DNA of 64,000 bases. It comes from a virus. The stretch covers positions 19,862 to 83,861 of IMG/VR virus record IMGVR_UViG_3300032020_001000; one strand, 5' to 3'. Below, in pieces: positions 2,522 through 64,000 of this stretch (the first letter of the stretch is position 1; every line of letters begins with the position of its first letter). Below the pieces are notes generated by a model, which was not told the origin of the DNA, ran no database searches, and saw only the letters and a program-made list of their open reading frames with translations. Both the position numbers and the translations under genes were made by a program.

Positions 2522-4947
2522 GACCGCTTAGTCTGAGGCTCGACAACTTCCAGAGCTATAGGGGCCCGCACGAGCTTGACCTGCACGGGATCAACCTCGC
2601 CATACTGAGCGGCCCCAACGGCGCGGGCAAGTCCTCGATCATCGATGCCATACGCTATGCCCTGTGGGGATATGCTCGCGCTGGCGCCGATAGCGTCGTC
2701 ACCGAGGGCGAGAACGTCGGGCGGGTGGAATTCGAGTTCGCGCTGGGGGCTGACCACTATCTGGTCAGCCGTCAGCGGAATCGCAAAGGGGGTGGCGGGA
2801 CAGCGCTGAGTTTCCAGAGCGTCATCGGCGACATCCTCCCACACGGGCGGCTCAACAACATAGTGCTCGATGGCAAAACGGTCGGGGAGACGCAGGCCAG
2901 CATCGAGCATGTCCTGCGCATGACCGATGATCTCTTCACCCAGACTGCCTGTGCCAACCAGGGGAATGCTGCCGCCTTCTCCCAGGCCCGGCCCGCCGAC
3001 CGCAAGCGCGTGCTTGGCGATATCCTCGACCTGGCGGCATGGGAGCGCCGGGCCGAGGCCGCGCGGCAGGCATCGCGGGAGGCGCAGGGTCGGATTGATC
3101 GGGCGAGCGCCGATATCCAGGCTGCCCAGACTGAGGCCGCAAAGCAGCCGGACATCGAGGCTCAGATCGCAACCAACGCCGAGCGCATCGCCTATGCCGA
3201 GCGCGACCAGCAAGGCATCCAGGCCGACCTAGCCACAGTGCAGGAGCAGCGGGTCGCCGCGATCGCACTGCGGGATGGCGCAGTGCGCAAGAGCGAGGAA
3301 CTGCAGGAGGCTCAGGGCCGGTGGCGGCTGATCGAGAGCCAGGTCAATGACCGTGCTGCGCGGCTGCGGAATCTCCAGCAGGTCACTGCTGACCGCGTCA
3401 ATGTCGAGCAGGCGCTGGCGCAGGCTATCGCAGCGGCGGAGCGCGCCGAGGAATTGGCGGACGCGCAGCGCCAGGCCCAAGAGATCGCGCATGAGGAAAA
3501 GCTAATTGTCGAACGAGCGGCCACCGCCAAGCGCGAGCATGAGGCAGAGATCGCCCGGGTCACCGAGGCACTCAGAGGTATCAAGCGGGACTATTCGCAC
3601 CAGGTGCAGGCGCTCGATACCGAGGTCGCGCACATCCGGGAGGTTCATCTCCATCGGGTCGCGCAACTCGACGACCAGCACGAGCGGCTCGCCAGGCAGG
3701 CGGAAGTGCTGGACGAGGTGCCGTGCGCCAACCCGGTTGACGAGGCCACGCGCCCTTCGTTCTTCGCCATCCGAGACAAATGCCCGCTGATCGCCCAGGC
3801 ACGCGAAGCCGTGGCGCAGATCGGCGCCGTGTACGCAGACCTTACGGCCGCCCGGGCAGCGGCTCCCTGGGCGGAGCGGCAGGCGGAGCTGGACGCCCTC
3901 CGCGGCCAGGCGAGCCAGATTGGGGCACCAGAGGCCGCCAGGCTCGCGCTGCTCGAGCGGGACGACCCACTGGCGCAGATCAGGGCCGACAGCGCCGCCC
4001 TGGCCGCCCGGCGCGCAGCGCTGGGCTACGTGGCGGGCACTTGGGAAGAGGCTCGTCGCGAGGCGGATAAGCGCCCGGCGCTTGAGATCCGCATGCGCGA
4101 GATCGAGGTCGCCGCGGCGCAGGCAGCGGAGCTGCAGGCTGCGCTGGATGAGGCGCGTCGGGCGGCAGCCGACCTGGGCGAGCGCGTCGCCCAAATCCAG
4201 TCGGAGATGCTCGACCCCGCCGCGATCCAGCGCAAGCTGAGCGATGTTGACGCGGAAATCCATCGCTGCGAGACAGCGCTGGTTGATCTGCGCACGACGA
4301 TCTCCCGCGCGCAAGCGCAGGCGGGTGCGCTGCACGAACGCCTCGAGGCGGCTCGCCGAGATGCCCGGCATGCAGACGAACTGCTGGAACTGCTGGAGAC
4401 GCTCGAGCGCCGGCGCCAACTGCTCGACCTGCTCGGCAACCCCCGTAGCGGCGCATTCTCACGGTCAGGCATCCCCGCACTCCTCATTGACCAGGCCGTG
4501 CCCGAGCTCGAGGCCGCGGCCAACGAGGTGCTGCGCGAGCTGAGCGATGGCCGGATGTCGGTGGCGCTGCACACGCAGCGCGAGACGCAGGCAAAGACTC
4601 TCAGCGAAACCCTCGAGATCATCGTCGCCGACGAGCGGGGAGAGCGGCCGTACGAGACGTTCTCCGGCGGCGAGGCAATGAGGGTTGACCTGGGCCTCCG
4701 CATTGGACTCTCGCGGCTGCTGGCAGCACGCGCGGGCGCGCGCTGCGAGATGCTGGTGATGGATGAGACCGCGGCCCCTCTCGATGCAGATGGCCGGCGC
4801 CTGTTCGTGCAGTGCCTGGGCCGGGTGGCGGAGCGCTTCGCATGCGTGCTGTGTATCAGCCACGTCGAGGAACTGAAGGACTTGTTCCCGGCGCAGATCG
4901 CTGTGAGCAAAGGCGATGGCGGCAGCCGCCTGGAGGTGTTGCGGTGA
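2518..4947 (+). CDS. sbcC: SbcC/Rad50 SMC-like ATPase
   Basis: Walker A GPNGAGKS, long coiled coil, signature FSGGE, Walker B LVMDE, ISH; start moved to the coupled ATG at 2518. Confidence 0.92.
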   Translation: MRPLSLRLDNFQSYRGPHELDLHGINLAILSGPNGAGKSSIIDAIRYALWGYARAGADSVVTEGENVGRVEFEFALGADHYLVSRQRNRKGGGGTALSFQSVIGDILPHGRLNNIVLDGKTVGETQASIEHVLRMTDDLFTQTACANQGNAAAFSQARPADRKRVLGDILDLAAWERRAEAARQASREAQGRIDRASADIQAAQTEAAKQPDIEAQIATNAERIAYAERDQQGIQADLATVQEQRVAAIALRDGAVRKSEELQEAQGRWRLIESQVNDRAARLRNLQQVTADRVNVEQALAQAIAAAERAEELADAQRQAQEIAHEEKLIVERAATAKREHEAEIARVTEALRGIKRDYSHQVQALDTEVAHIREVHLHRVAQLDDQHERLARQAEVLDEVPCANPVDEATRPSFFAIRDKCPLIAQAREAVAQIGAVYADLTAARAAAPWAERQAELDALRGQASQIGAPEAARLALLERDDPLAQIRADSAALAARRAALGYVAGTWEEARREADKRPALEIRMREIEVAAAQAAELQAALDEARRAAADLGERVAQIQSEMLDPAAIQRKLSDVDAEIHRCETALVDLRTTISRAQAQAGALHERLEAARRDARHADELLELLETLERRRQLLDLLGNPRSGAFSRSGIPALLIDQAVPELEAAANEVLRELSDGRMSVALHTQRETQAKTLSETLEIIVADERGERPYETFSGGEAMRVDLGLRIGLSRLLAARAGARCEMLVMDETAAPLDADGRRLFVQCLGRVAERFACVLCISHVEELKDLFPAQIAVSKGDGGSRLEVLR

Positions 4948-19323: not shown

Positions 19324-20001
19324 ATGCCGAAAAGAAAGGCAGCAAAAGGCGAGGTGGATGCGCGGGCATGGGCCTTACCGCAGAACTTCGTGCTCCACCG
19401 CAACCCGCGCAAGACATTGCGGGTGCGGATTATCGGCAAAGGGCCGCTCCTGGAGCAGAACCCGGCGCGAATGCGGGATGCGCATATCAAAACGAAAGAG
19501 CAGACGGGGCAGACCAAGAAGCGCCAGGCTTGGGATGCTGAGGCCGAATGCAAGGCCCATGTCCACCGACTGATGGATGGACGGCCGGGCGTACCCTGCA
19601 TTGCGCTCAAGAAGGCGATGGCCGCGACTGTTAGCGGGAAGGGCCAAGAGTGGTATGGGCGCCGAAAGGAACTCTACAGCGCCTTCTGGATTCGGGGCGA
19701 AGCCAATCAGGAGCAGGGCGGCATGGAATTGTTGCCCATTATCTCGCCCAACGGTGACTACGTGGTGGATCGTTCCTGGGTGCGCAACAGTGGCATCGGC
19801 CGCCCCATTGACGTGCGAGCCAGGCCGCGATGGGACAAGTGGGCGCTCGACGTAGAGATCGAGTTCAAGACTAGCGCCGGACTGACGGAGCAGACCCTGC
19901 TCGATATGCTCGATGAGGCTGGAGACCGGGGGATCGTCTCCCGCCGGCAGGAGAACAGCGGAGAGAACTATGGCACCTTCGAGGTGGCGGTGGAGGCATA
20001 A
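19324..20001 (+). CDS. RAMP/Cas7-like protein, candidate effector of the pentamer array
   Basis: VRIIGKGPLL, PCIALKKAM, RPRWDKWALDVEIEF and C-terminal Gly loop AGDRGIVSRR...GENYGTFEV resemble the RAMP motif order. Confidence 0.65.
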   Translation: MPKRKAAKGEVDARAWALPQNFVLHRNPRKTLRVRIIGKGPLLEQNPARMRDAHIKTKEQTGQTKKRQAWDAEAECKAHVHRLMDGRPGVPCIALKKAMAATVSGKGQEWYGRRKELYSAFWIRGEANQEQGGMELLPIISPNGDYVVDRSWVRNSGIGRPIDVRARPRWDKWALDVEIEFKTSAGLTEQTLLDMLDEAGDRGIVSRRQENSGENYGTFEVAVEA

Positions 20002-31784: not shown

Positions 31785-32318
31785 ATGAGATGGGTAGTCG
31801 TTGTGGCGGTGCTGTTGCTGATAGCAGGAATTGGCTGGAGCGCAGGCGATGAAGCAGGACGCGACCTTTCGGTGGCAGTCCTTTACGGTCAGGGCTCCAG
31901 CGGCGGTGATGCAGCGTTTGGTATGGAACTGATCGGGGGTCGCGGCGCAGATTGGGATGGAGTGGCGCTGTGGCTTTCGGGCAAGCCCTTCCAGGGAGAG
32001 GATGTGATTGACACATCCATTCCGCATGGCGACTATCGCGTCCGCGAGGAGCACGGATCGATTGGGCTGCAGTACCTGCATGGATCGGGAACTCCGCGCG
32101 CGCTGGCCATCGTCGGTGTCGGCTTCATCATGGATGAGACCCGCTACATTCAAGTTTCCAACGTCACGGGCTGGGAGTGGGCCGGCGGATCTGATACGCA
32201 TTACGAGGTGACCGCACAGGTCGGCGGCCGCCTGCAGCTTGCGCCCGGGCTCAGCTTGCGCGCGGGCTATGATAGCCATTACCGCGCCTTTGGCGGCCTG
32301 GCCTTTCAATCGCGGTAG
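31785..32318 (+). CDS. outer-membrane beta-barrel-like protein
   Basis: Signal peptide; alternating Gly/aromatic strands; C-terminal GGLAFQSR. Confidence 0.6.
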   Translation: MRWVVVVAVLLLIAGIGWSAGDEAGRDLSVAVLYGQGSSGGDAAFGMELIGGRGADWDGVALWLSGKPFQGEDVIDTSIPHGDYRVREEHGSIGLQYLHGSGTPRALAIVGVGFIMDETRYIQVSNVTGWEWAGGSDTHYEVTAQVGGRLQLAPGLSLRAGYDSHYRAFGGLAFQSR

Positions 32319-32408
32319 GGGCTATAACGACACCAGGCAGGGGAGACCGGGGCACACGCGGGCAGCTGCGGGGCAACCGCAAGGGCTGTGTGTGGACCCG
32401 CCCTCGTG

Positions 32409-32417
32409 TGGTATAAT
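32409..32417 (+). promoter_or_regulatory. extended -10 promoter upstream of the methylase/terminase operon
   Basis: TGGTATAAT followed by a GC hairpin; no consensus -35. Confidence 0.5.
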
Positions 32418-32481
32418 CGAGACGGGCCGCCTGCGGGAAAACTGTGGGCGGCCCGGCTTGTGGCCCTGCCTGGAGAGTGCA

Positions 32482-33948
32482 TTGACTGAACCGACCGACT
32501 GGTTGCGCCTGCCGCTCGAGCGGCTGCTGGCGAATCCGCGCAACTACCGCAGGCATCCCGAGGCGCAGATCGCGGCGCTCCGCGCCAACCTCAGTCGTCA
32601 TGGGCAGCAGAAGCCCGTGGTGATCCGCTCGGACGACACGATCCTGGCCGGCCACGCGCTGGTGGAGGCGGCGCGGCAGTCGGGCTGGAGCGAGATCGGC
32701 ATACGCGTCTACGACGGCACCGCCCCCGACGCATTCCTGGTCGACGATAACGAGTCGGTGCGCCTGGCAGAGGATGATGACCAGGCACTCGCCGGGCTGC
32801 TGCGAGAGCGCATGGAGGCGGGGACGCTGGACTCCACGGGCTGGGGAGAGGATGAGGTGCGGGCGCTGCTCGAGCGCATCGAGGCGGAGCAGCACCAGGT
32901 GCAGGGCGAAGATCCGGGGCCGGGGGAGGCGCCGGCGGAGCCGGTAACGCGCCCGGGCGACTTATGGCTGCTGGGCGAGCACCGGCTGCTGTGCGGTGAC
33001 TGCATGGTCGAGGGCGACATCGACCGCCTCATGGCCGGCGAGAAGGCCGGGTGCTGCGTGACGTCGCCGCCCTACGCCATGCAGCGAGAATCGACGTACG
33101 GCGGCACCCCCGCCTCCGATTATCCCGCCTGGTTCCGGCGCGTGGCAGCCCAGGTGTGGAGCGCGCTCGATGAGGCCGGCAGTTTCTTTCTGAACCTCAA
33201 AGAACACGTCGAGGATGGCCAGCGCAGCCTCTACGTCATGCGTACGGTGATCGCTCTCGTCGAGGCGGGTTGGCGCTACGTGGATCAGCTGATCTGGGTG
33301 AAGCCCGGGCTGCCGGGCGAGCACTACCCGCGCTTGAAGAATGACTTCGAGCCGATTCATTTCTTCGCGCGGCAGGACGCCGTCAACTGGCAAGTGCGGG
33401 TTGTGGACATGAACCGCGACTGGCTGGCGGAGACCGACTTCAACCTGGCGGAGATGTATGAGGACATCTTCCAGTTCTCCAAGCAGTTCCGGATCAGGTT
33501 CCGACCGCGCGCAGTGGGGCACCGAAGCACGGGCGTTCCTGAGTATCAAGGGCCCGGCGGCTCCTACGGCCCCAGCGGGAACATCAGCCTGAACGATGAT
33601 GTGCGAGTCTCAGGCATCGCGCGCCCGGGCAACGTGCAGCATTTTGGACTAAATCGTGAATCCTTCGATCATCCGGCGGTGTTCCCGGTGGCGCTGCCGG
33701 CCTTCTTCATGCGCTTGACCACCGAGGAAGGCGGGCTGACCTTCGAACCCTTCTCCGGCGCGGGCACGACCATCATCGCCGCGGAGCAGAACCAGCGCCG
33801 ATGCGTCGCCGTGGAACTGGTGCCGGCCTACTGCGACGTCGCTATCGAGCGCTGGCAGCGCATGACCGGACGCCCAGTGTCCCATGCGGAGACAGGCAGA
33901 ACCTTCGCCGAGTACACTCAGGAGCGTGCTCAGGGCGGCGCAGAGTGA
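32482..33948 (+). CDS. ParB-domain fused N4/N6 DNA methyltransferase
   Basis: NPRNYRRH, AGH, HRLLCGD, TSPPY, HPAVFP, EPFSGAGTT; TTG start after GGAGA. Confidence 0.88.
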   Translation: MTEPTDWLRLPLERLLANPRNYRRHPEAQIAALRANLSRHGQQKPVVIRSDDTILAGHALVEAARQSGWSEIGIRVYDGTAPDAFLVDDNESVRLAEDDDQALAGLLRERMEAGTLDSTGWGEDEVRALLERIEAEQHQVQGEDPGPGEAPAEPVTRPGDLWLLGEHRLLCGDCMVEGDIDRLMAGEKAGCCVTSPPYAMQRESTYGGTPASDYPAWFRRVAAQVWSALDEAGSFFLNLKEHVEDGQRSLYVMRTVIALVEAGWRYVDQLIWVKPGLPGEHYPRLKNDFEPIHFFARQDAVNWQVRVVDMNRDWLAETDFNLAEMYEDIFQFSKQFRIRFRPRAVGHRSTGVPEYQGPGGSYGPSGNISLNDDVRVSGIARPGNVQHFGLNRESFDHPAVFPVALPAFFMRLTTEEGGLTFEPFSGAGTTIIAAEQNQRRCVAVELVPAYCDVAIERWQRMTGRPVSHAETGRTFAEYTQERAQGGAE

Positions 33949-38493: not shown

Positions 38494-38910
38494 CGCTGTT
38501 CCACTCCCGCATCTATGGCGCGATGAACAAGCGCCGGCGCAAGCAGCTCGGACTGGCCAGGCATCGCCGCGAGGCGGTGTGGCGACTCATGGCCGCAGAG
38601 GAGGCTGGGCTGGCCGCAACTGCGCGCTTCCGTCTGGCACCGTGGTGGCGTCGGGTTCTGCACCGGCTGCTGTGGCTGGCTGGGAGGCTATGGTCAGGCC
38701 GGCGATCAGCAGATCGAGCCAGGCTATCGAGAACCGCCAGAGCAGCGCCACGGCGTTCTGGGCGGTGAGGGCGGCAGTGCCGTGCCCACTGTCGATAGTT
38801 GCGGCGGCGCTTCGAAACGCCGCCATACCCTGTTGGCGCAGCGCAGCCACATCGGCATCACTGATCATGGCCAACCTCCGTGCCGATAAGATTCGATGCA
38901 GGCGGGCGCG

Positions 38911-41900
38911 ATGCCTGCACTGATCGGGCGTCGCAAGGTTGATGATTTCCGCCGCGCGTTCGGCGGGCCGCTGGATTCCCTGGCTGCCGTCTATCGCCGG
39001 GGAATGGCGGATGCGATGGAAGTCCTCAGCAATGCCGCCTCTACCCTCGCGCAGCGCCGCTATGCCCTATCCCACCTGCGTCAATACAACGTTGTGCTGA
39101 GCAATCTCCGGGATGAGACCGCGGCCTGGGCGCAACTCCACATGCCGGCCTCATACCGCCTCGGCATGGAGTTCGCGGATGATGGCATCCGCAGCGTGCG
39201 TCGCGCCGGCATCAACCTCGGAAAGCCGCAGTATGAAGTCTTCAGCCAGGTGCATCGGCAGGCAGCCGAAAGTGCCACTACGGAGTTGCTGCGGACGACC
39301 GATTTCGCAATCGCGCAGATCGGCCGGCGGGTGGATGATGTGTTCCGCCGGGTCGGCATGGAGGAGGTCACGAAGGGCATCGTCGAGGGGGCGACGCGGC
39401 TGGATGTCAGCAAGGCGATCAAGGAGCGATTGATTGATGAGGGCCGGCCATTCTTCCTGGACCGCGCCGGCCGCAAGTGGGACCTCGACCGCTACAGCGA
39501 GATGGTCGCCCGCACCACGACGCGCGAGGCGGCGACGACGGGGACGATCAACCGGCTGAGCGAACACAATATCTGGCTGGCGCAGGTGTCGGCGCACAAC
39601 GCGGGAGATTTCTGTCTTTACTATGAGAATGTCATCGTCTTCATCGGCGACGATCCGAATCCTACACCCTACCCACCGATCAGCGCCATCGAGGGCGGCC
39701 CGCCTTTCCACCCGCAGTGCCTCATTCGCGGCAGCCGGGTCCTGACATCGAGCGGGTGGCGGGCAATCGAGTGCATTCGGCGCGGCGACCTGGTGATGAC
39801 ACACCGCGGCCGTTGGCGACGAGTGACGGCGATGATGCAGCGTGAGTACGAAGGGGAACTCGTGCAACTCGGCGCGCTCCGTGTGACACCTGAGCACCCA
39901 GTATTGACTCAACACGGATGGGTGACTGCGGGCAGTTTATCCGGTGCCGAGAAGGTGGCGATCCTGCAAGCAAGCGACGACCGCATCGGCGGTCAATTCG
40001 GGCCGCTTGCGGTAGCGAATCCGAACGACCTCATAGCCCAAGGCGCGAACAGCGGCATCGCGGGATTCACGCTTGGCAACGCGTTTCGGCTCGCGCCAGT
40101 GGTCGATCTCGATGGTCATATTGCTGCCGTGGCCAGGGAAGAAGAAGTCTGCGATGTAGCGCCCGATGGGATGCTGGAAAGAATATTCGATGCCGGCTGC
40201 GGTGAGCGCGGCACAGACCGCGGATTCGTGGGGATGCGGTTTGCGGCGATAGGAGCCAGCTCGCGTGATCGACATTTTGCGCGCGAGAGTTTCGTCGCGG
40301 CTGGGGTTACCGGGCCCGCGCATGCGACTCCGATTGCGAGTGAACGCGGGACCGTTAGGGTCAGTGATGCTGTCTCGCTTCGCCCCGCCCCTGGGGCGGG
40401 TCTGGATGCCGTAGCGGGGGAACCAGATACGCAGCAACTGTGTGGCATCGCGGCCGATCTCTACTCCCAGCTGCTTCAGCGTGGTGCCTTCGGCATATCG
40501 GCGGCGAAGAAACTGCTTCAGCGGTTCGCCCACTGCTTGTCCGAGGCGCTTTTCAGTGATGCGGCGCCGAAGCTCCTCCCGGCAACCGAAGGAGCAAGTC
40601 GGGCTGCCCAAAACCCGGTCGCGGCGGGAGACGCTCAGAGTGAAGGGCTGGTGACAAACAGGACAGCTAGTCATCGCGACCCCATTATACCATTGCCCAG
40701 ACGTGCTTGCAACTACAGCGGCGTTGTCTACAACCTCTCGGTCGCGGAGGACGAGAGTTATATCGCCGAAAGGATCGTCGTCCACAACTGTGTCCATGTC
40801 CTCACCCCCTTCGTCGAGCGCCTGGCAACTGAGGCGGAGAAGCAGGCGGGCAAGATCGATGCCGACCTGCTCAACAAGTCGCCGGCGGAACTGCAGCGCC
40901 GGTTCCGCGCAGAGTTCCCCGAGCGCGCCCGGGCGGAGGGGAAACGGCTGCGGGAGCAGGCGGCGCGGGGGCGTGGGGCGATCATGCGGCGCGCAGAGAG
41001 AAGGGCACTAGCGGGGCCACCACCGATGAAGGTGCCGGCCCTCCGCGAGATGCCGGTTGGCACCGTGCTGCGGCGCACCTACAAAGGCCGCGAGTATGTC
41101 GCCGAGGTACTGCACGACGGCAGGATCATGTGTAATGGCCAAGTTTATCGGTCGCTCACCGAACTCGCGAAGAATATCACGGGCCAAACCGCGATCAGCG
41201 GACCGCGGTTCTTCGGAGTGGCCGAGCGCGGGAAGCGGGGAGTGGCCATCGCCCCCACCCCCACCCGAGCAGCCCCCGGCGAGGTTGCCGCACCACGTCC
41301 GCCGCGCCTGCCGCCGCGCGACGAGTTGCAGATGGCGAGGTACATCGCCGATGACCTTGCAACGTTGATGGACACGAAGGTAGGATGGAATGGCAAGCTC
41401 ACGATAGAAAAGATACCCGACGCTGTCGGGCTGAAGCAGTGGAATTGTTCTATTGTCCTGGATCAGGCGACCCGCGAGCGTCTAACGGAACTTATGCAGT
41501 TGAATGCAGAGTCCTGGGCGCATAAGTATGAATGGCACCGGCGGCAGATAGCGGACGCATTCCAAACGCTCGTGCACGAAATGACGCATGCTGCTGGGCC
41601 ACAGGGATCATGCACCCAATTCGATTTTGTAACGGCCGCGCAGCGGTGGATCGAGGAGGCGGTGACAAGCGCAGCGTCTGAGCGCATGGCGCCAGTGCTG
41701 TTCAAGCAGATCATGGGGTTTGAAGCCGGGCTAGCGCCAGAGGCTTTTGGACCCGCCTCATATGCATCCTATCAGCAGGCATTGGCGAAGGCGCTGGGCG
41801 GACCGCAATATGGCCGCACGCTGAAAGAGCCAATGCGGGGCATCGCCACCGACCTGCAACTCGACCTAGCTTACAAGACGCCCCGCAAGGATCGACTGTT

Positions 41901-42717
41901 CCGAGTGGCCACGGAAATGAGCAAGGCCGTCAAGGGACAGATGACCGCTGTGGAGATTGAGGCGGCGCTGGAGGCCGGCGCCGACCAGGCAGTGAGGGCG
42001 ACGTATGCGAGCGCTCGGGCAGCCGGCGCCCGCGCCCGGGCGGCAGGCAAGGCGGCTGGCGCTCGCGCGCCGGCGATAACGAGGGCTCCAGCGGCGGCGC
42101 GGGCCCTGGAAATCGGGGTAGAACCTGGTGCCGCACGTGCTGCCCCACGAGGCGCGGCCATTATCGAGAAGCCAATCAAAGCGAAGGTGGGTGCAGTGCG
42201 GATAACTGCCAGCGCGGGGATCAGAACCGAGGGGTGGGATGGTGTAGTCGCCATCGCCCGCGGGATACCGTCTGGCCACATGAAGGGCGTCAAGGGAATT
42301 GACCTGCTGGCAGAGGTCGGGCCATTGGCGAGGGCCGGTAAGGCGTCGGGTAACGTGGTCGGCACCTGGTACATGCAGCGGATCACGATGTATGACCTCG
42401 GTACGCGCGGCGTGGCGAAGAAAACGGGCGCGCACTTCGCGCACGAAGTGGGGCATAACTTGGCGATGCGCGCCGAACTGAAGGGATTGTTGGGGCGGGA
42501 CAAAGTGGCCAGGGCATGGAACGAGCTGCATGATATCTGGAAGAAAGAGGATGGCGTGAGTCCATATGCGCGGGCCTGGTGGAAGCGGGGTAAGGGCAAA
42601 GTGTCGGAGACGATAGCCGAGATGTACCGCCTGCGCATGACGCAGCCCGCAGCCTATAGGCGGCTGCCGGAGGCCCTGCGGAAGCCCTTTGAGGTGATCT
42701 ACAATGGCCTCGCCTGA
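38911..42717 (+). CDS. minor capsid/MuF-like head protein with an intein, a DUF2924-like domain and two HExxH domains
   Basis: DRAGRKW...YSEMVART...PPFHPQ/CVH; GTVLRRTYKG...SGPRFFG; HEMTH; HEVGH...SPYA...ETIAE. Confidence 0.85.
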   Translation: MPALIGRRKVDDFRRAFGGPLDSLAAVYRRGMADAMEVLSNAASTLAQRRYALSHLRQYNVVLSNLRDETAAWAQLHMPASYRLGMEFADDGIRSVRRAGINLGKPQYEVFSQVHRQAAESATTELLRTTDFAIAQIGRRVDDVFRRVGMEEVTKGIVEGATRLDVSKAIKERLIDEGRPFFLDRAGRKWDLDRYSEMVARTTTREAATTGTINRLSEHNIWLAQVSAHNAGDFCLYYENVIVFIGDDPNPTPYPPISAIEGGPPFHPQCLIRGSRVLTSSGWRAIECIRRGDLVMTHRGRWRRVTAMMQREYEGELVQLGALRVTPEHPVLTQHGWVTAGSLSGAEKVAILQASDDRIGGQFGPLAVANPNDLIAQGANSGIAGFTLGNAFRLAPVVDLDGHIAAVAREEEVCDVAPDGMLERIFDAGCGERGTDRGFVGMRFAAIGASSRDRHFARESFVAAGVTGPAHATPIASERGTVRVSDAVSLRPAPGAGLDAVAGEPDTQQLCGIAADLYSQLLQRGAFGISAAKKLLQRFAHCLSEALFSDAAPKLLPATEGASRAAQNPVAAGDAQSEGLVTNRTASHRDPIIPLPRRACNYSGVVYNLSVAEDESYIAERIVVHNCVHVLTPFVERLATEAEKQAGKIDADLLNKSPAELQRRFRAEFPERARAEGKRLREQAARGRGAIMRRAERRALAGPPPMKVPALREMPVGTVLRRTYKGREYVAEVLHDGRIMCNGQVYRSLTELAKNITGQTAISGPRFFGVAERGKRGVAIAPTPTRAAPGEVAAPRPPRLPPRDELQMARYIADDLATLMDTKVGWNGKLTIEKIPDAVGLKQWNCSIVLDQATRERLTELMQLNAESWAHKYEWHRRQIADAFQTLVHEMTHAAGPQGSCTQFDFVTAAQRWIEEAVTSAASERMAPVLFKQIMGFEAGLAPEAFGPASYASYQQALAKALGGPQYGRTLKEPMRGIATDLQLDLAYKTPRKDRLFRVATEMSKAVKGQMTAVEIEAALEAGADQAVRATYASARAAGARARAAGKAAGARAPAITRAPAAARALEIGVEPGAARAAPRGAAIIEKPIKAKVGAVRITASAGIRTEGWDGVVAIARGIPSGHMKGVKGIDLLAEVGPLARAGKASGNVVGTWYMQRITMYDLGTRGVAKKTGAHFAHEVGHNLAMRAELKGLLGRDKVARAWNELHDIWKKEDGVSPYARAWWKRGKGKVSETIAEMYRLRMTQPAAYRRLPEALRKPFEVIYNGLA
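39937..40674 (-). CDS. DUF559/Vsr-like endonuclease with Zn finger and HTH, antisense inside the intein
   Basis: CPVC...CSFGC; ESAVCAAL...FQHPIGRYIADF...IEID...RD...LGYEVVRI. Confidence 0.8.
   Translation of the reverse strand: MTSCPVCHQPFTLSVSRRDRVLGSPTCSFGCREELRRRITEKRLGQAVGEPLKQFLRRRYAEGTTLKQLGVEIGRDATQLLRIWFPRYGIQTRPRGGAKRDSITDPNGPAFTRNRSRMRGPGNPSRDETLARKMSITRAGSYRRKPHPHESAVCAALTAAGIEYSFQHPIGRYIADFFFPGHGSNMTIEIDHWREPKRVAKRESRDAAVRALGYEVVRIRYRKRPELTADAVVACLQDRHLLGTG
40684..40712 (-). promoter_or_regulatory. sigma70 promoter for the antisense endonuclease
   Basis: Minus strand TTGCAA-17 bp-TATAAT with extended TG, 9 nt before the ATG. Confidence 0.75.
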
Positions 42718-61062: not shown

Positions 61063-63726
61063 ATGCTACCTTCCCGCGATGACTTCTGGATAGAGCGTGT
61101 CCGCCGCGAGCGGCAATACCACCGCTCCACCTTCGCGGCCGTCGTGACGCTCATCCACGACGACGGCACGGTGGATGTGCGCATGGTGGCGAGTGGCGGC
61201 GCCGCGTTCTACCGCGTACCAATTTTGGGCCAACTGACGGTGAGCGTTGGCAGCATCGTGACCGTGCAGCGCATCGGCGACTATCGCGGCAACAACTACC
61301 AGGTAACCGGCCATCTGGCCTCTAGCGCGCCGCCAGGCGGTGGATATGACCCCACCATTCCTGCCGCAACAAGCGAGGAGGTCGTCGCGGCGCGGGACTC
61401 CGAGGTATATGGCGCGCACGACACCCTCGACGAGCGCCTCGAGGCCGGAGATGATGCCGGCCTGGGCGACGGCAAGGTGAAGGCGGTGCACCTGGCGCCG
61501 GGAACCTTCCCGCGCGTCCACGACCCGCGCAGCCTGGTGCCGGACGGCGCCTTCGAGGTTGTGCAGGACGCCGCGCTGGCCTGGTGGATGGGATCTTATG
61601 GTCCCGCCACCATCGCCCGCGTCGCTGGCGATGGGACGGCCGGCGGGGCCTGCCTGGAGTTCTCGGCGCGCACGGAGGCCAATACCGCGGCCGGTATCTA
61701 TGTGCGATTCCGGACGCACAGCACCAACGCCGCCCTCGCCCCGCTTGATGAGGGAGGGATATTCGCGGTTGGGATAAGTGCCAAGCGCGTGGGGGCGGCG
61801 GATGGCAACGTCATCGGCCTGGTCATCGAGTGCTACGACCGCGATCTCGCACTCCTGGGCACCCTTACGCCGATAACTTTCGCCCCGCCAACCGACGCGT
61901 GGCTGAGGCAGGCCCCCATATTCATCGGGCCCGATCAGGATTACACCTGGCCAGCCGGCACGCGTTATATCCGCGTGCAAGTGCGTGACACCTCTAGCGG
62001 CATGGGCGCAGTCAACCGCGTGGACATGGTGGTGGTGCGGCGGGGGATACAGATCGCCGACATCGCCGACTTCGAGGGCGGCGGGGGCGACCATGCTGCG
62101 CTGAGCAACCTCGATTTCCCCTCCGCCGGGCACACCGGCAACCTGGGGATCACTAAGGCCGACCCGGAAGTGCGGCTCACCGACACCGGCGATTCCGAAT
62201 ACACGCGCGTCACCCGCGCCGACACCGACGCCCTCGCGGCGCGCTACAACCGCGTCTATAAGCCGGGGGCGGCGGGGTACGCGATAGACCTCGACGGCGC
62301 GCAGGACTACATCACTCTCGGCACGGATGCCGCCTTCAATCTCACCGGCGACCACAGCATCGAGATGTGGGTGAAAACGTCGTCGGCGGCCAGAAGGGGG
62401 CTTTTTCATAGGCTTGAAAACGGCGGGGCATATCCGGGTTATAACTTCGAGTTGGGCGGTTTTGCCGGCGCGGCGGGCCAGTTGGCCTACTACAATGGCA
62501 ACACGGGCTGGAAGTACGGCACTTCTACCAACGTCATCAACAACGGCAGTTGGCACCATATCGTGATCGTGGTTGACGCCGATGTGGGCGGCACGTTCTA
62601 CAAGGATGGAGTGGCCGATGGCGACTGGGCTGACACCACTTCGGGGCCTCCCAGCGCCGGTGCAATCGCTGCTGAAATCGGCAGGTCTTATGCGGGCGGC
62701 AACTTCTTCCTCGGCGCGTTGGACGAAGTGCGCGTTTACAGCAAGGCACTGAGCGCAGGCGAGGTCACGGCGCACTACAACGCTGGCGCGGGGCAGTACG
62801 GTGCGCCAGAAGCGAACCTGGTGGCTGGCTGGCACCTCGACGAGGGCAGCGGCGTCACGGTCGCGGACTACAGCGGCAACGCCCACACGGGGACGCTGAA
62901 GCCGACCGGCAACGAGCCGGGCTTCGTCGCGGGCAAGTTCAATATCCCCGGCGGGGAAACCGAAGTCACCGTCTGGCAGTCGCAGGACGGCGTTGACCCA
63001 AACGAGAAGGGGATTCAGCGTTTCGGTGATCCAGACGGCAGGACGGAGCTTAGGGGCGTGCTCGAAATACAGCAGCGGCTGACGCCTGCGAACCCCGCTA
63101 GCGGCAAGCGGCGGCTGTTTGTGGACAGCGCGGACGGCAAGCTCAGGGTGCTGACCTCCTCCGGCAAGAATATCAGCCTCGAAGAGCGTGCGGGCTTCCG
63201 CGTCATAGACGCCAAGAACCTGCTGCCGGACGGCGCTTTCGAGGTAGACGATGATGCCGACGGCGTGCCCGACTGGTGGACTTGGCCCGCTTCGAGCGGC
63301 GGTACGCGGACACTCATCACAACTGATAGCGTATCCGGCCGGCAGTGCGTGCAGTTCGACCGCACCGTAGCCAGTGTGGGGATTGATATGTACGCACAGG
63401 CGAACCGCGGCCTCGTTGATGGCAGGTACATCCCGATCAACCGGGCGTTCACCTACTCGGTCGCCATCTGGATGAGAGCCGTCTGGGCGCAAGCGCAAAA
63501 TGTAATCCAGGTCTGGGTCTATCAGGCTGACCGCAGCGGCGGGTACCTGACGGCCACTATGGTCATAAACATCACGCCCGATGTCGACTGGGTACAACAG
63601 GTCGCCACCATCGGCCCTGCGGCCTGGCACGCCGACGCCGTGTATGCCTATATCCTGGTGCGGGACGCAAGCACCAGCGTGGCCGCGGTGACCCGCGTAG
63701 ACTGCGTGCGGTTCTGGCTGCCGTGA
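61063..63726 (+). CDS. tail fibre/receptor-binding protein with LamG and two carbohydrate-binding-like domains
   Basis: SIEMWVK, WHHIV, GALDEVRVYSKAL; duplicated L.PDGAFEV...VRD.S...RVD. Confidence 0.75.
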   Translation: MLPSRDDFWIERVRRERQYHRSTFAAVVTLIHDDGTVDVRMVASGGAAFYRVPILGQLTVSVGSIVTVQRIGDYRGNNYQVTGHLASSAPPGGGYDPTIPAATSEEVVAARDSEVYGAHDTLDERLEAGDDAGLGDGKVKAVHLAPGTFPRVHDPRSLVPDGAFEVVQDAALAWWMGSYGPATIARVAGDGTAGGACLEFSARTEANTAAGIYVRFRTHSTNAALAPLDEGGIFAVGISAKRVGAADGNVIGLVIECYDRDLALLGTLTPITFAPPTDAWLRQAPIFIGPDQDYTWPAGTRYIRVQVRDTSSGMGAVNRVDMVVVRRGIQIADIADFEGGGGDHAALSNLDFPSAGHTGNLGITKADPEVRLTDTGDSEYTRVTRADTDALAARYNRVYKPGAAGYAIDLDGAQDYITLGTDAAFNLTGDHSIEMWVKTSSAARRGLFHRLENGGAYPGYNFELGGFAGAAGQLAYYNGNTGWKYGTSTNVINNGSWHHIVIVVDADVGGTFYKDGVADGDWADTTSGPPSAGAIAAEIGRSYAGGNFFLGALDEVRVYSKALSAGEVTAHYNAGAGQYGAPEANLVAGWHLDEGSGVTVADYSGNAHTGTLKPTGNEPGFVAGKFNIPGGETEVTVWQSQDGVDPNEKGIQRFGDPDGRTELRGVLEIQQRLTPANPASGKRRLFVDSADGKLRVLTSSGKNISLEERAGFRVIDAKNLLPDGAFEVDDDADGVPDWWTWPASSGGTRTLITTDSVSGRQCVQFDRTVASVGIDMYAQANRGLVDGRYIPINRAFTYSVAIWMRAVWAQAQNVIQVWVYQADRSGGYLTATMVINITPDVDWVQQVATIGPAAWHADAVYAYILVRDASTSVAAVTRVDCVRFWLP

Positions 63727-63764
63727 GATAGGGAGTAGGAAGTAGGGAGCAGGGAGTAGGGAGG
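63727..63764 (+). repeat. heptamer tandem repeat (AGTAGGG-like, about 5 copies)
   Basis: GATAGGG AGTAGGA AGTAGGG AGCAGGG AGTAGGG AGG, running into the next RBS. Confidence 0.7.
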
Positions 63765-63772
63765 AATCATAC

Positions 63773-64000
63773 ATGGCTCTGACCGAGCAGGAAAAGCAGG
63801 CGCTCTACAGCCGGTTCAGCCGTCTGACCGGCCTTGACATCGCATACATTCTGGTCGAGGCCAACGAGGCGGGGCTGATTGACGATGCCCGTGTGCGCGG
63901 GTTCGCGCAGCGGGTGTGGCGGGCTTTCTGCAATCAGCGCAAGGCGATCATCGCCGCGCAGATAGCGGAGTTGCAAGCGGAGAAGGACACGCTAGAATGA
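63773..64000 (+). CDS. hypothetical protein
   Basis: GGAGG RBS; complete 75-aa ORF. Confidence 0.6.
   Translation: MALTEQEKQALYSRFSRLTGLDIAYILVEANEAGLIDDARVRGFAQRVWRAFCNQRKAIIAAQIAELQAEKDTLE

Follow-up and report, generated by a model that had tools for sequence, protein, structure and literature searches.

We analyzed a 64,000-nucleotide stretch of viral DNA, hereafter the window, that corresponds to positions 19,862 to 83,861 of IMG/VR record IMGVR_UViG_3300032020_001000. The record is a provirus of 83,861 bases, and the G+C content of the window is 65%. The subject of this work is an intein that splits the gene for a phage head protein, together with a putative nuclease gene that lies on the opposite strand within the intein coding region. 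The features of the locus are as follows.

38896-42717, plus strand: whole open reading frame (ORF) of a MuF/minor-capsid-2-like head protein, 1273 amino acids (aa)
38896-39717, plus strand: N-extein, ending ...PPFHPQ, with the Phage_min_cap2 match
39718-40788, plus strand: class-1 intein by its motifs, 357 aa (head-protein residues 275-631), with Cys1, block B TPEH, block F VVYNLSVAEDESYIA, block G VVHN and Cys+1 at 40789
39937-40674, plus strand: intein centre in the sense frame, about 245 codons with no recognizable domain, the in-register reverse complement of the nuclease codons
40789-42717, plus strand: C-extein, beginning CVHVLTP and continuing into a long C-terminal extension, with DUF2924 at residues 656-775
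40674-39937, minus strand: putative nuclease gene, 245 aa plus stop TAA (39939-39937), with a Cys-pattern N-terminus, a possible helix-turn-helix (HTH) and a DUF559/Vsr-like PD-(D/E)xK domain
40012-40227, minus strand: predicted DUF559 catalytic core, nuclease residues ~150-221, placed by the family alignment and the Pfam match
40582-40665, minus strand: Cys4, Cys7, Cys27 and Cys31 (CxxC...CxxxC), a possible zinc ribbon by direct reading, missing from all aligned relatives
40684-40712, minus strand: sigma-70-like promoter, TTGCAA (40712-40707), 17 nucleotides (nt), TATAAT (40689-40684) with a preceding TG (extended -10), matching 10/12 consensus positions

The head ORF matches Phage_min_cap2 (PF06152, E 1.4e-13) over residues 82-235 and Phage_Mu_F weakly. 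An earlier note on this DNA, made from the letters alone, had proposed that a 357-aa intein splits the HPQ/CVH motif of a MuF-like protein, and this proposal is upheld by Hint-type matches at the two ends of the element and by homologues that lack it. The sense frame from 39718 to 40788 contains 357 codons and no stop, and its ends score above the family cut-offs for Vint (34.9 bits, cut-off 27), Hint_2 (33.1 bits, cut-off 28.4) and TIGR01443 intein_Cterm (20.9 bits, cut-off 15.6). Intein-less minor capsid proteins run without interruption through the site, as in FHPN-CKH of Sporosarcina phage Lietuvens and WHPN-CRH of Bacillus phage 035JT001, which places the window intein exactly between Q and C of FHPQ/CVH (the slash here and below marks the insertion or splice point), the H-P-N/C motif of its host. 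This motif is the most conserved of the host head protein. By its sequence the element is a class-1 Hint intein, with an N-terminal Cys, a T-x-x-H block B, a terminal His-Asn, a Cys at position +1 and an in-frame location at a conserved site. The Hint-type matches are confined to the two ends, and the sense frame of the centre yields no match in Pfam or NCBIfam, in agreement with the note's description of a stop-free centre without a recognizable domain; its product is probably an unstructured linker.

The opposite strand of this centre encodes the putative nuclease. Read from the minus strand, the ORF matches DUF559 (PF04480) with 28.8 bits against a cut-off of 20.6 over residues 160-221, and all 11 nuclease ORFs scanned, from the window and ten relatives, match the same family (best E 9.1e-19). 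A profile of the nuclease family matches the endonuclease-like protein 3hrl_A in PDB (E 2.2e-11) and gives no match to 3R3P there at E up to 1. Positions invariant in the family alignment include E150, Q167, D176, E189, D191, R198, D206 and R218, and the window nuclease retains all 15 invariant columns, D176, E189 and D191 among them. The earlier note had read the ORF as a zinc finger, an HTH and a DUF559/Vsr-like nuclease. The nuclease assignment stands, whereas the HTH rests at sub-threshold matches (HTH_58, E 0.0048; HTH proteins in PDB, E 0.2-0.35) and the zinc finger reduces to a pattern of cysteines, for which no significant family match was obtained and the sole Pfam hint has an E of 0.055. 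A longer version of the ORF, starting at the ATG at 40797, was considered and set aside: the 41 codons gained at its start lie opposite intein blocks F and G and contain the promoter, and the ORFs of relatives begin after block F.

Relatives of the reversed nuclease gene

Relatives were collected by a tblastn search of 50,697 phage records with the nuclease as query and by profile-guided scans of IMG/VR, metagenome-assembled genome (MAG) and metagenome contigs. The tblastn matches were to three Vibrio phages; in each, the gene located after the portal is annotated 'hint domain protein' and the match lies on its opposite strand, and in these phages a reversed ORF of 245-246 aa lies inside a MuF-like ORF of 697-707 aa bearing the motif ...HN/CRS. 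The profile-guided scans added 10 IMG/VR loci, 2 MAG contigs and 22 metagenome loci. A profile search of 1.84 billion representative proteins returned 52 at E up to 1e-30, about 40 of them full-length, and a word search with the nuclease of one relative (L005) returned only three called proteins, all from contigs about 1 kb long; JGI had named one of these proteins 'very-short-patch-repair endonuclease'. In the three cultured Vibrio phage records (L001-L003; GenBank MG592630, MG592631 and MG592457) only a Hint or 'coil containing' protein is annotated, and the reversed nuclease gene has been overlooked.

With near-copies merged, 14 distinct loci, including the window, share a contiguous layout in which the sense frame is open across the nuclease gene; they range in G+C content from 0.37 to 0.66 and carry the splice-site motif H-x-N/(C, A or S)...HN/C. 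At eight further distinct loci (L009-L012, L022, L025, L026 and L028) the nuclease gene is intact and the sense frame is broken by 5-13 in-frame stops, after which the frame resumes with block F/G, HN/C and the conserved C-extein. All 22 of these intein-associated loci, which span 37 to 66% G+C, encode a MuF-like protein with H-x-N/...HN/C. Two loci (L023 and L038) were too short to be classed, and three remote relatives (L039-L041) have the DUF559 core only, with no Hint motifs. The nuclease was found only inside the intein and at one host site in 3/3 cultured phages and 10/10 IMG/VR loci, a distribution that is the signature of a homing pair. Judged from these sequences, the nuclease keeps to a single self-splicing element and a single conserved site in genomes that are unrelated to each other.

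The eight broken-frame loci are candidates for split inteins that occur naturally in a head protein. At L009, host pieces at 2648-3967 and 1886-2389 form same-frame halves that flank an intact reversed nuclease gene, and the same arrangement is seen at L010, L011, L012, L022, L025, L026 and L028. Opposite the nuclease gene the N piece stays open for about 110 codons, and in the C piece internal Met codons occur ahead of block F.

With H-P-N-C taken as the intein-less motif, the first residue of the intein varies within the family. Ala or Ser occupies this position (HFN/AIAEG, HHN/ALATG, HPN/SVIKG) in L005, L006, L008, L014, L015, L016, L030, L031, L033, L034 and L035, whereas some relatives, namely L001, L002 and the majority of broken-frame loci, have a Cys at the second intein position instead. 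The Ala- and Ser-start relatives may use a splicing route that does without an N-terminal nucleophile. Class-3 inteins carry a Cys at the fourth position of block F; this residue is Asn in the Ala-start relatives, and a class-3 assignment was rejected. One contiguous relative (L016) comes from a MAG labelled Mycoplasma sp., Mycoplasmataceae, with a G+C content of 0.37, and both its intein and its reversed nuclease gene are open under translation table 11, which suggests either that a phage contig was binned there or that the host does not use TGA as a Trp codon.

Constraint on the two frames

The frames of the nuclease and the intein are in exact codon register, and the absence of TTA, CTA and TCA codons from the nuclease ORF is the reason why the intein centre has no TAA, TAG or TGA. 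In the window alone this is unremarkable. At the codon usage of the window, a 245-codon gene would lack all three codons with P 0.16, and the in-register antisense frame is free of stops in 145 of 596 windows of 246 codons taken from plus-strand genes (P about 0.24). Openness of both frames is thus expected by chance at 65% G+C often enough that the case rests on the relatives.

The contiguous loci contain 0 TTA, CTA or TCA codons in the nuclease ORF, compared with 7-13 in one comparison and 5-13 in another with homologous broken-frame loci, where these codons make up, in the pooled set, a fraction of 0.265 of Leu codons and 0.275 of Ser codons. When the probability of zero such codons was computed from each locus's own codon usage, the low-G+C loci gave values of 1.4e-9 (L001), 2.2e-8 (L002), 8.4e-10 (L005), 7.5e-8 (L006), 3.0e-6 (L014) and 1.9e-8 (L016); two high-G+C loci gave 0.15 and 0.057. 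The sense frames of the low-G+C relatives are therefore free of stops far beyond chance.

Substitutions between relatives identify the frame whose product is under selection. Differences were most frequent at position 3 of the nuclease codons and least frequent at position 2 in 14/14 pairs compared; by codon position they numbered 1, 1 and 8 between L002 and L003, and 91, 72 and 129 between L008 and L015, for which amino-acid identity is.55 in the nuclease frame and.40 in the sense frame. Identity between relatives was always higher in the nuclease frame. The third-position excess and the higher nuclease-frame identity show purifying selection on the nuclease of these relatives, with the sense frame selected only to stay open. 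The earlier note had proposed an inverted nuclease kept under double-coding constraint, and had set selection on the sense frame against that idea; across homologues, selection was found on the nuclease frame, and the shared layout of the 14 contiguous loci and the low-G+C P values likewise favour both frames being kept open. Within the window, G+C content by plus-frame codon position is.72/.54/.63 in the intein centre, as against.66/.47/.79 in the N-extein, indicating that the pattern of the centre tracks the minus strand and not the host gene.

An explanation to be weighed here is that the minus-strand ORF is an artefact of high G+C content and that the sense frame encodes an in-frame domain that has escaped recognition. 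Long shadow ORFs do occur in the window: a plus-strand gene at 61063-63726 (887 aa; Laminin_G_3, E 2.4e-27) is shadowed over its full length by a minus-strand ORF of 902 aa at 61066-63774, which has no family match and serves as an in-window control for the length that a chance antisense ORF can reach at 65% G+C. This explanation is nevertheless highly improbable, since at the intein a DUF559 match above the cut-off is obtained in the minus frame and no match in the sense frame, the ORF is retained in homologues with a G+C content of 37-47%, and substitutions spare the minus frame and not the sense frame. The earlier note had also called the nuclease gene the only convincing minus-strand gene of the window. 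In a partial check, six other long minus-strand ORFs had no Pfam match, and four minus-strand stretches pass a crude filter on G+C content at third codon positions.

On a maximum-likelihood tree with 25 nuclease rows, one change suffices for the broken-frame state and two for the contiguous state, values as low as which were reached in 0/500 shuffles of the labels; the grouping of the broken-frame loci into one clade is weakly supported (17/52). The window lies on a long branch of this tree, and the read-through state has thus persisted across deep divergence.

Promoter and proposed homing

The promoter-like site of the window ends 9 nt before the nuclease ATG, and matches of 10/12 or better occurred in only 1.6% of 890 control windows from the surrounding 9 kb. 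No Shine-Dalgarno sequence was seen ahead of this ATG, and together with the 9-nt spacing this predicts a near-leaderless mRNA; the nuclease genes of most relatives have GGAGG-like sites ahead of their start codons. When 12 contiguous relatives were scanned, L001 and L016 reached 10/12 and L014 reached 9, and seven scored no better than the control windows. Among six broken-frame loci scanned, five have TTGACA-18-TATAAT, exactly or with a single mismatch (12/12 in L009 and L011; 11/12 in L010, L012 and L028), located 34-43 nt upstream of the nuclease start and inside the reverse of block F, a position that differs from that of the promoter in the window; L026 gave no promoter match. The promoter described in the earlier note, TTGCAA-17-TATAAT at 9 nt from the ATG, is thus borne out as a sequence match, and as a general feature such a promoter belongs to the broken-frame clade only. 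By these matches, a host-type promoter is recurrent, though not universal, among the reversed nuclease genes. The earlier note further proposed that separate expression of the nuclease would uncouple homing from late-gene expression and may yield antisense RNA to the head gene; a look-up of sequencing runs listed one DNA run, probably of the source sample, and no RNA run.

Taken together, the sequence evidence makes it probable that the window carries a mobile-type intein whose homing endonuclease is encoded as a reversed DUF559/Vsr-like gene, codon against codon, within the H-P-N/C motif of a MuF/minor-capsid protein. The head gene would be translated through the reversed gene, giving a linker of about 245 residues with no fold, and the Hint domain would then splice out the intein, linker included. 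The nuclease would be made from its own minus-strand promoter on a near-leaderless mRNA. Where another phage genome in the cell carries a head-gene allele without the intein, the nuclease would cut it at the conserved motif, after which repair would copy the intein and the nuclease gene into the cut allele. A likely origin is that a free-standing endonuclease gene invaded a mini-intein, yielding either the read-through form seen in the window or the two-halves form of the sister clade.

Several observations weigh against this proposal as it applies to the window. Both open frames could have arisen there by chance, as calculated above, and the 902-aa shadow ORF is longer than the nuclease ORF and matches no family. 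The window nuclease has EIDHWREP at the core motif where 10/10 relatives have E-x-DGRGH, D-H-W-R-E replacing D-G-R-G-H, and with the DGRGH spacing lost the enzyme may be inactive. It is also the most divergent member of its family, with 19-28% identity to the others and a branch length of 2.5, and no close relative of it was found among 5.8 billion proteins or in viral contigs. The few promoter matches among contiguous relatives mean that a sigma-70 promoter is not a family trait. Finally, because the inteins of most relatives start with Ala or Ser and that of the window with Cys, the splicing chemistry of the relatives is not that of the window intein. In the same protein search the intein region of the window head protein matched only itself, and blastn of the whole head gene against phages gave no match.

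Some of these observations would also fit a relic, in which the nuclease has lost its activity, the intein has become fixed and vertically inherited, and the minus-strand ORF has stayed open because high G+C content makes stops rare. The probability of a chance open frame (0.16-0.24), the altered core motif, the long branch and the lack of near relatives that would indicate recent movement are all compatible with such decay. A decayed gene is harder to reconcile with a DUF559 match above the Pfam cut-off and retention of all 15 invariant columns, with G+C content by codon position that follows the minus strand, with a 10/12 promoter that includes the TG and lies 9 nt from the ATG, or with an N-terminal Cys pattern that looks like a gain rather than decay. 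We regard a relic as unlikely, while giving it more weight than any other competing explanation.

It is also conceivable, though less so, that the nuclease serves the phage or the lysogen and does not act in homing, either as a weapon against intein-less superinfecting relatives or as a DNA-binding regulator, with minus-strand transcription perhaps damping the head gene. The element resides in a provirus, where a host-type promoter could fire in lysogeny, and the broken-frame clade keeps its nuclease under selection, with promoters of 11-12/12, despite an interrupted intein frame. Against this, the nuclease occurs only in this intein and at one host site in the three cultured phages and the 10 IMG/VR loci. 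Moreover, cutting intein-less alleles would amount to homing and competition together, such that this idea is more an added role than a true rival to homing.

A more speculative extension, which we hold to be doubtful, is that the broken-frame relatives, instead of being products of decay, are working natural split inteins whose halves flank a promoter-bearing reversed endonuclease gene and which interconvert with the read-through form, and that the window nuclease is switched on in lysogeny, where it would exclude intein-less superinfectors as antisense transcription tunes the head gene.

Relation to known systems

The layout of a reversed nuclease within an intein is not new as a kind. Full inteins from actinobacteriophages that carry an anti-sense endonuclease, either VSR-like or LAGLIDADG, are the subject of a 2025 preprint (Gosselin, Arsenault and Gogarten, bioRxiv 10.1101/2025.01.02.630785), and its available text cites Gorbalenya 1998 and Gogarten 2002 for anti-sense LAGLIDADG cases. 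As presented in that text, those inteins resemble the one in the window in having an open intein frame with a complete nuclease ORF opposite it, between the splicing blocks, and a sense-frame middle without recognizable structure; minor capsid proteins are among their hosts, and the proposed origin is likewise the invasion of an intein by a free-standing endonuclease gene. The two sets differ in provenance: the preprint's is drawn from PhagesDB actinophages, whereas the layout is found here in Vibrio phages, marine and sediment metagenomes and MAGs. Searches by tblastn with the window nuclease and its marine relatives gave no match to the actinophage inteins at E up to 10, only the three Vibrio phages being significant, and free-standing mycobacteriophage endonucleases appeared at E 0.2-1. 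They differ also in the enzyme, which the preprint text links to EDxHD/3R3P by HHpred and whose family profile here matches DUF559 and 3hrl_A.

In the available preprint text the word 'promoter' is absent and split forms are not surveyed. Its authors anticipated decay of the anti-sense ORF; in the present set the frame that breaks is the sense frame. Three results go beyond that text as far as it was seen: the statistics on avoided codons, the occurrence of the layout in Vibrio phages, MAGs and metagenomes, and a clade in which the host frame is broken and the nuclease is not. By its sequence, the window copy is a divergent new member from outside the actinophages, with a Cys-pattern N-terminus, an altered DGxxH motif and a predicted near-leaderless start.

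The arrangement also recalls the 'fractured genes' in which a split intein has a free-standing Vsr-like or GIY-YIG endonuclease gene between its halves (Dassa et al. 2009, PMC2677866). Both are found in phages, both have a Vsr-like nuclease, equipped with control elements of its own, at the place in the intein where an endonuclease usually sits, and for both an invasion model is proposed; the eight broken-frame relatives resemble the fractured genes further in having the host gene in two pieces around the nuclease. The window intein, unlike these, lies in a single 1273-aa host frame and is not split. The endonuclease of Dassa et al. is encoded on the same strand, its 3' end overlaps the start of the downstream half and a joint transcript is proposed, whereas that of the window is reversed; and the fractured hosts are enzymes of DNA synthesis and repair, as opposed to a head protein.

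Classical large inteins, in which a LAGLIDADG or HNH domain is encoded in frame (reviewed in PMC8966425), share with the window intein a Hint domain, a mobility function between blocks B and F, and a conserved host motif. The window nuclease differs in being encoded outside the intein polypeptide, with a start and a strand of its own and, as judged by sequence match, a promoter of its own. A parallel is offered by group I introns that have antisense homing endonuclease genes (Mob DNA 2022, PMC9548176), in that a self-splicing element carries a mobility gene on the opposite strand. The host frame of an intron, however, may close across the reversed gene, whereas that of an intein must stay open, and it is this requirement that imposes the double-coding constraint.

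Here about 740 bases are read on both strands, on one for what would be a working enzyme and on the other only for the passage of the ribosome, a rare coding solution with an easily scored signature, namely a nuclease gene that never uses TTA, CTA or TCA. Its counterparts can be missed in annotation, as in all three cultured Vibrio phage records. The broken-frame sister clade, which keeps the reversed nuclease gene, mostly behind a near-perfect promoter, provides both candidate natural split inteins and a test of the model in which a free-standing gene invades an intein.

The head gene itself lies among genes for a terminase (34563) and an SPP1-like portal (36568) upstream and a scaffold (44792) and the major capsid protein (45636) downstream. 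Its C-extein extension contains DUF2924 (E 7.6e-14, residues 656-775), a weak RAMA match and, in a reading by eye, an HEMTH motif, and with this long extension the head protein resembles MuF proteins that bear cargo domains. Directly upstream of the terminase gene, at 32239-33948, lies a gene for an N6/N4 DNA methylase of 569 aa (E 4.2e-25).

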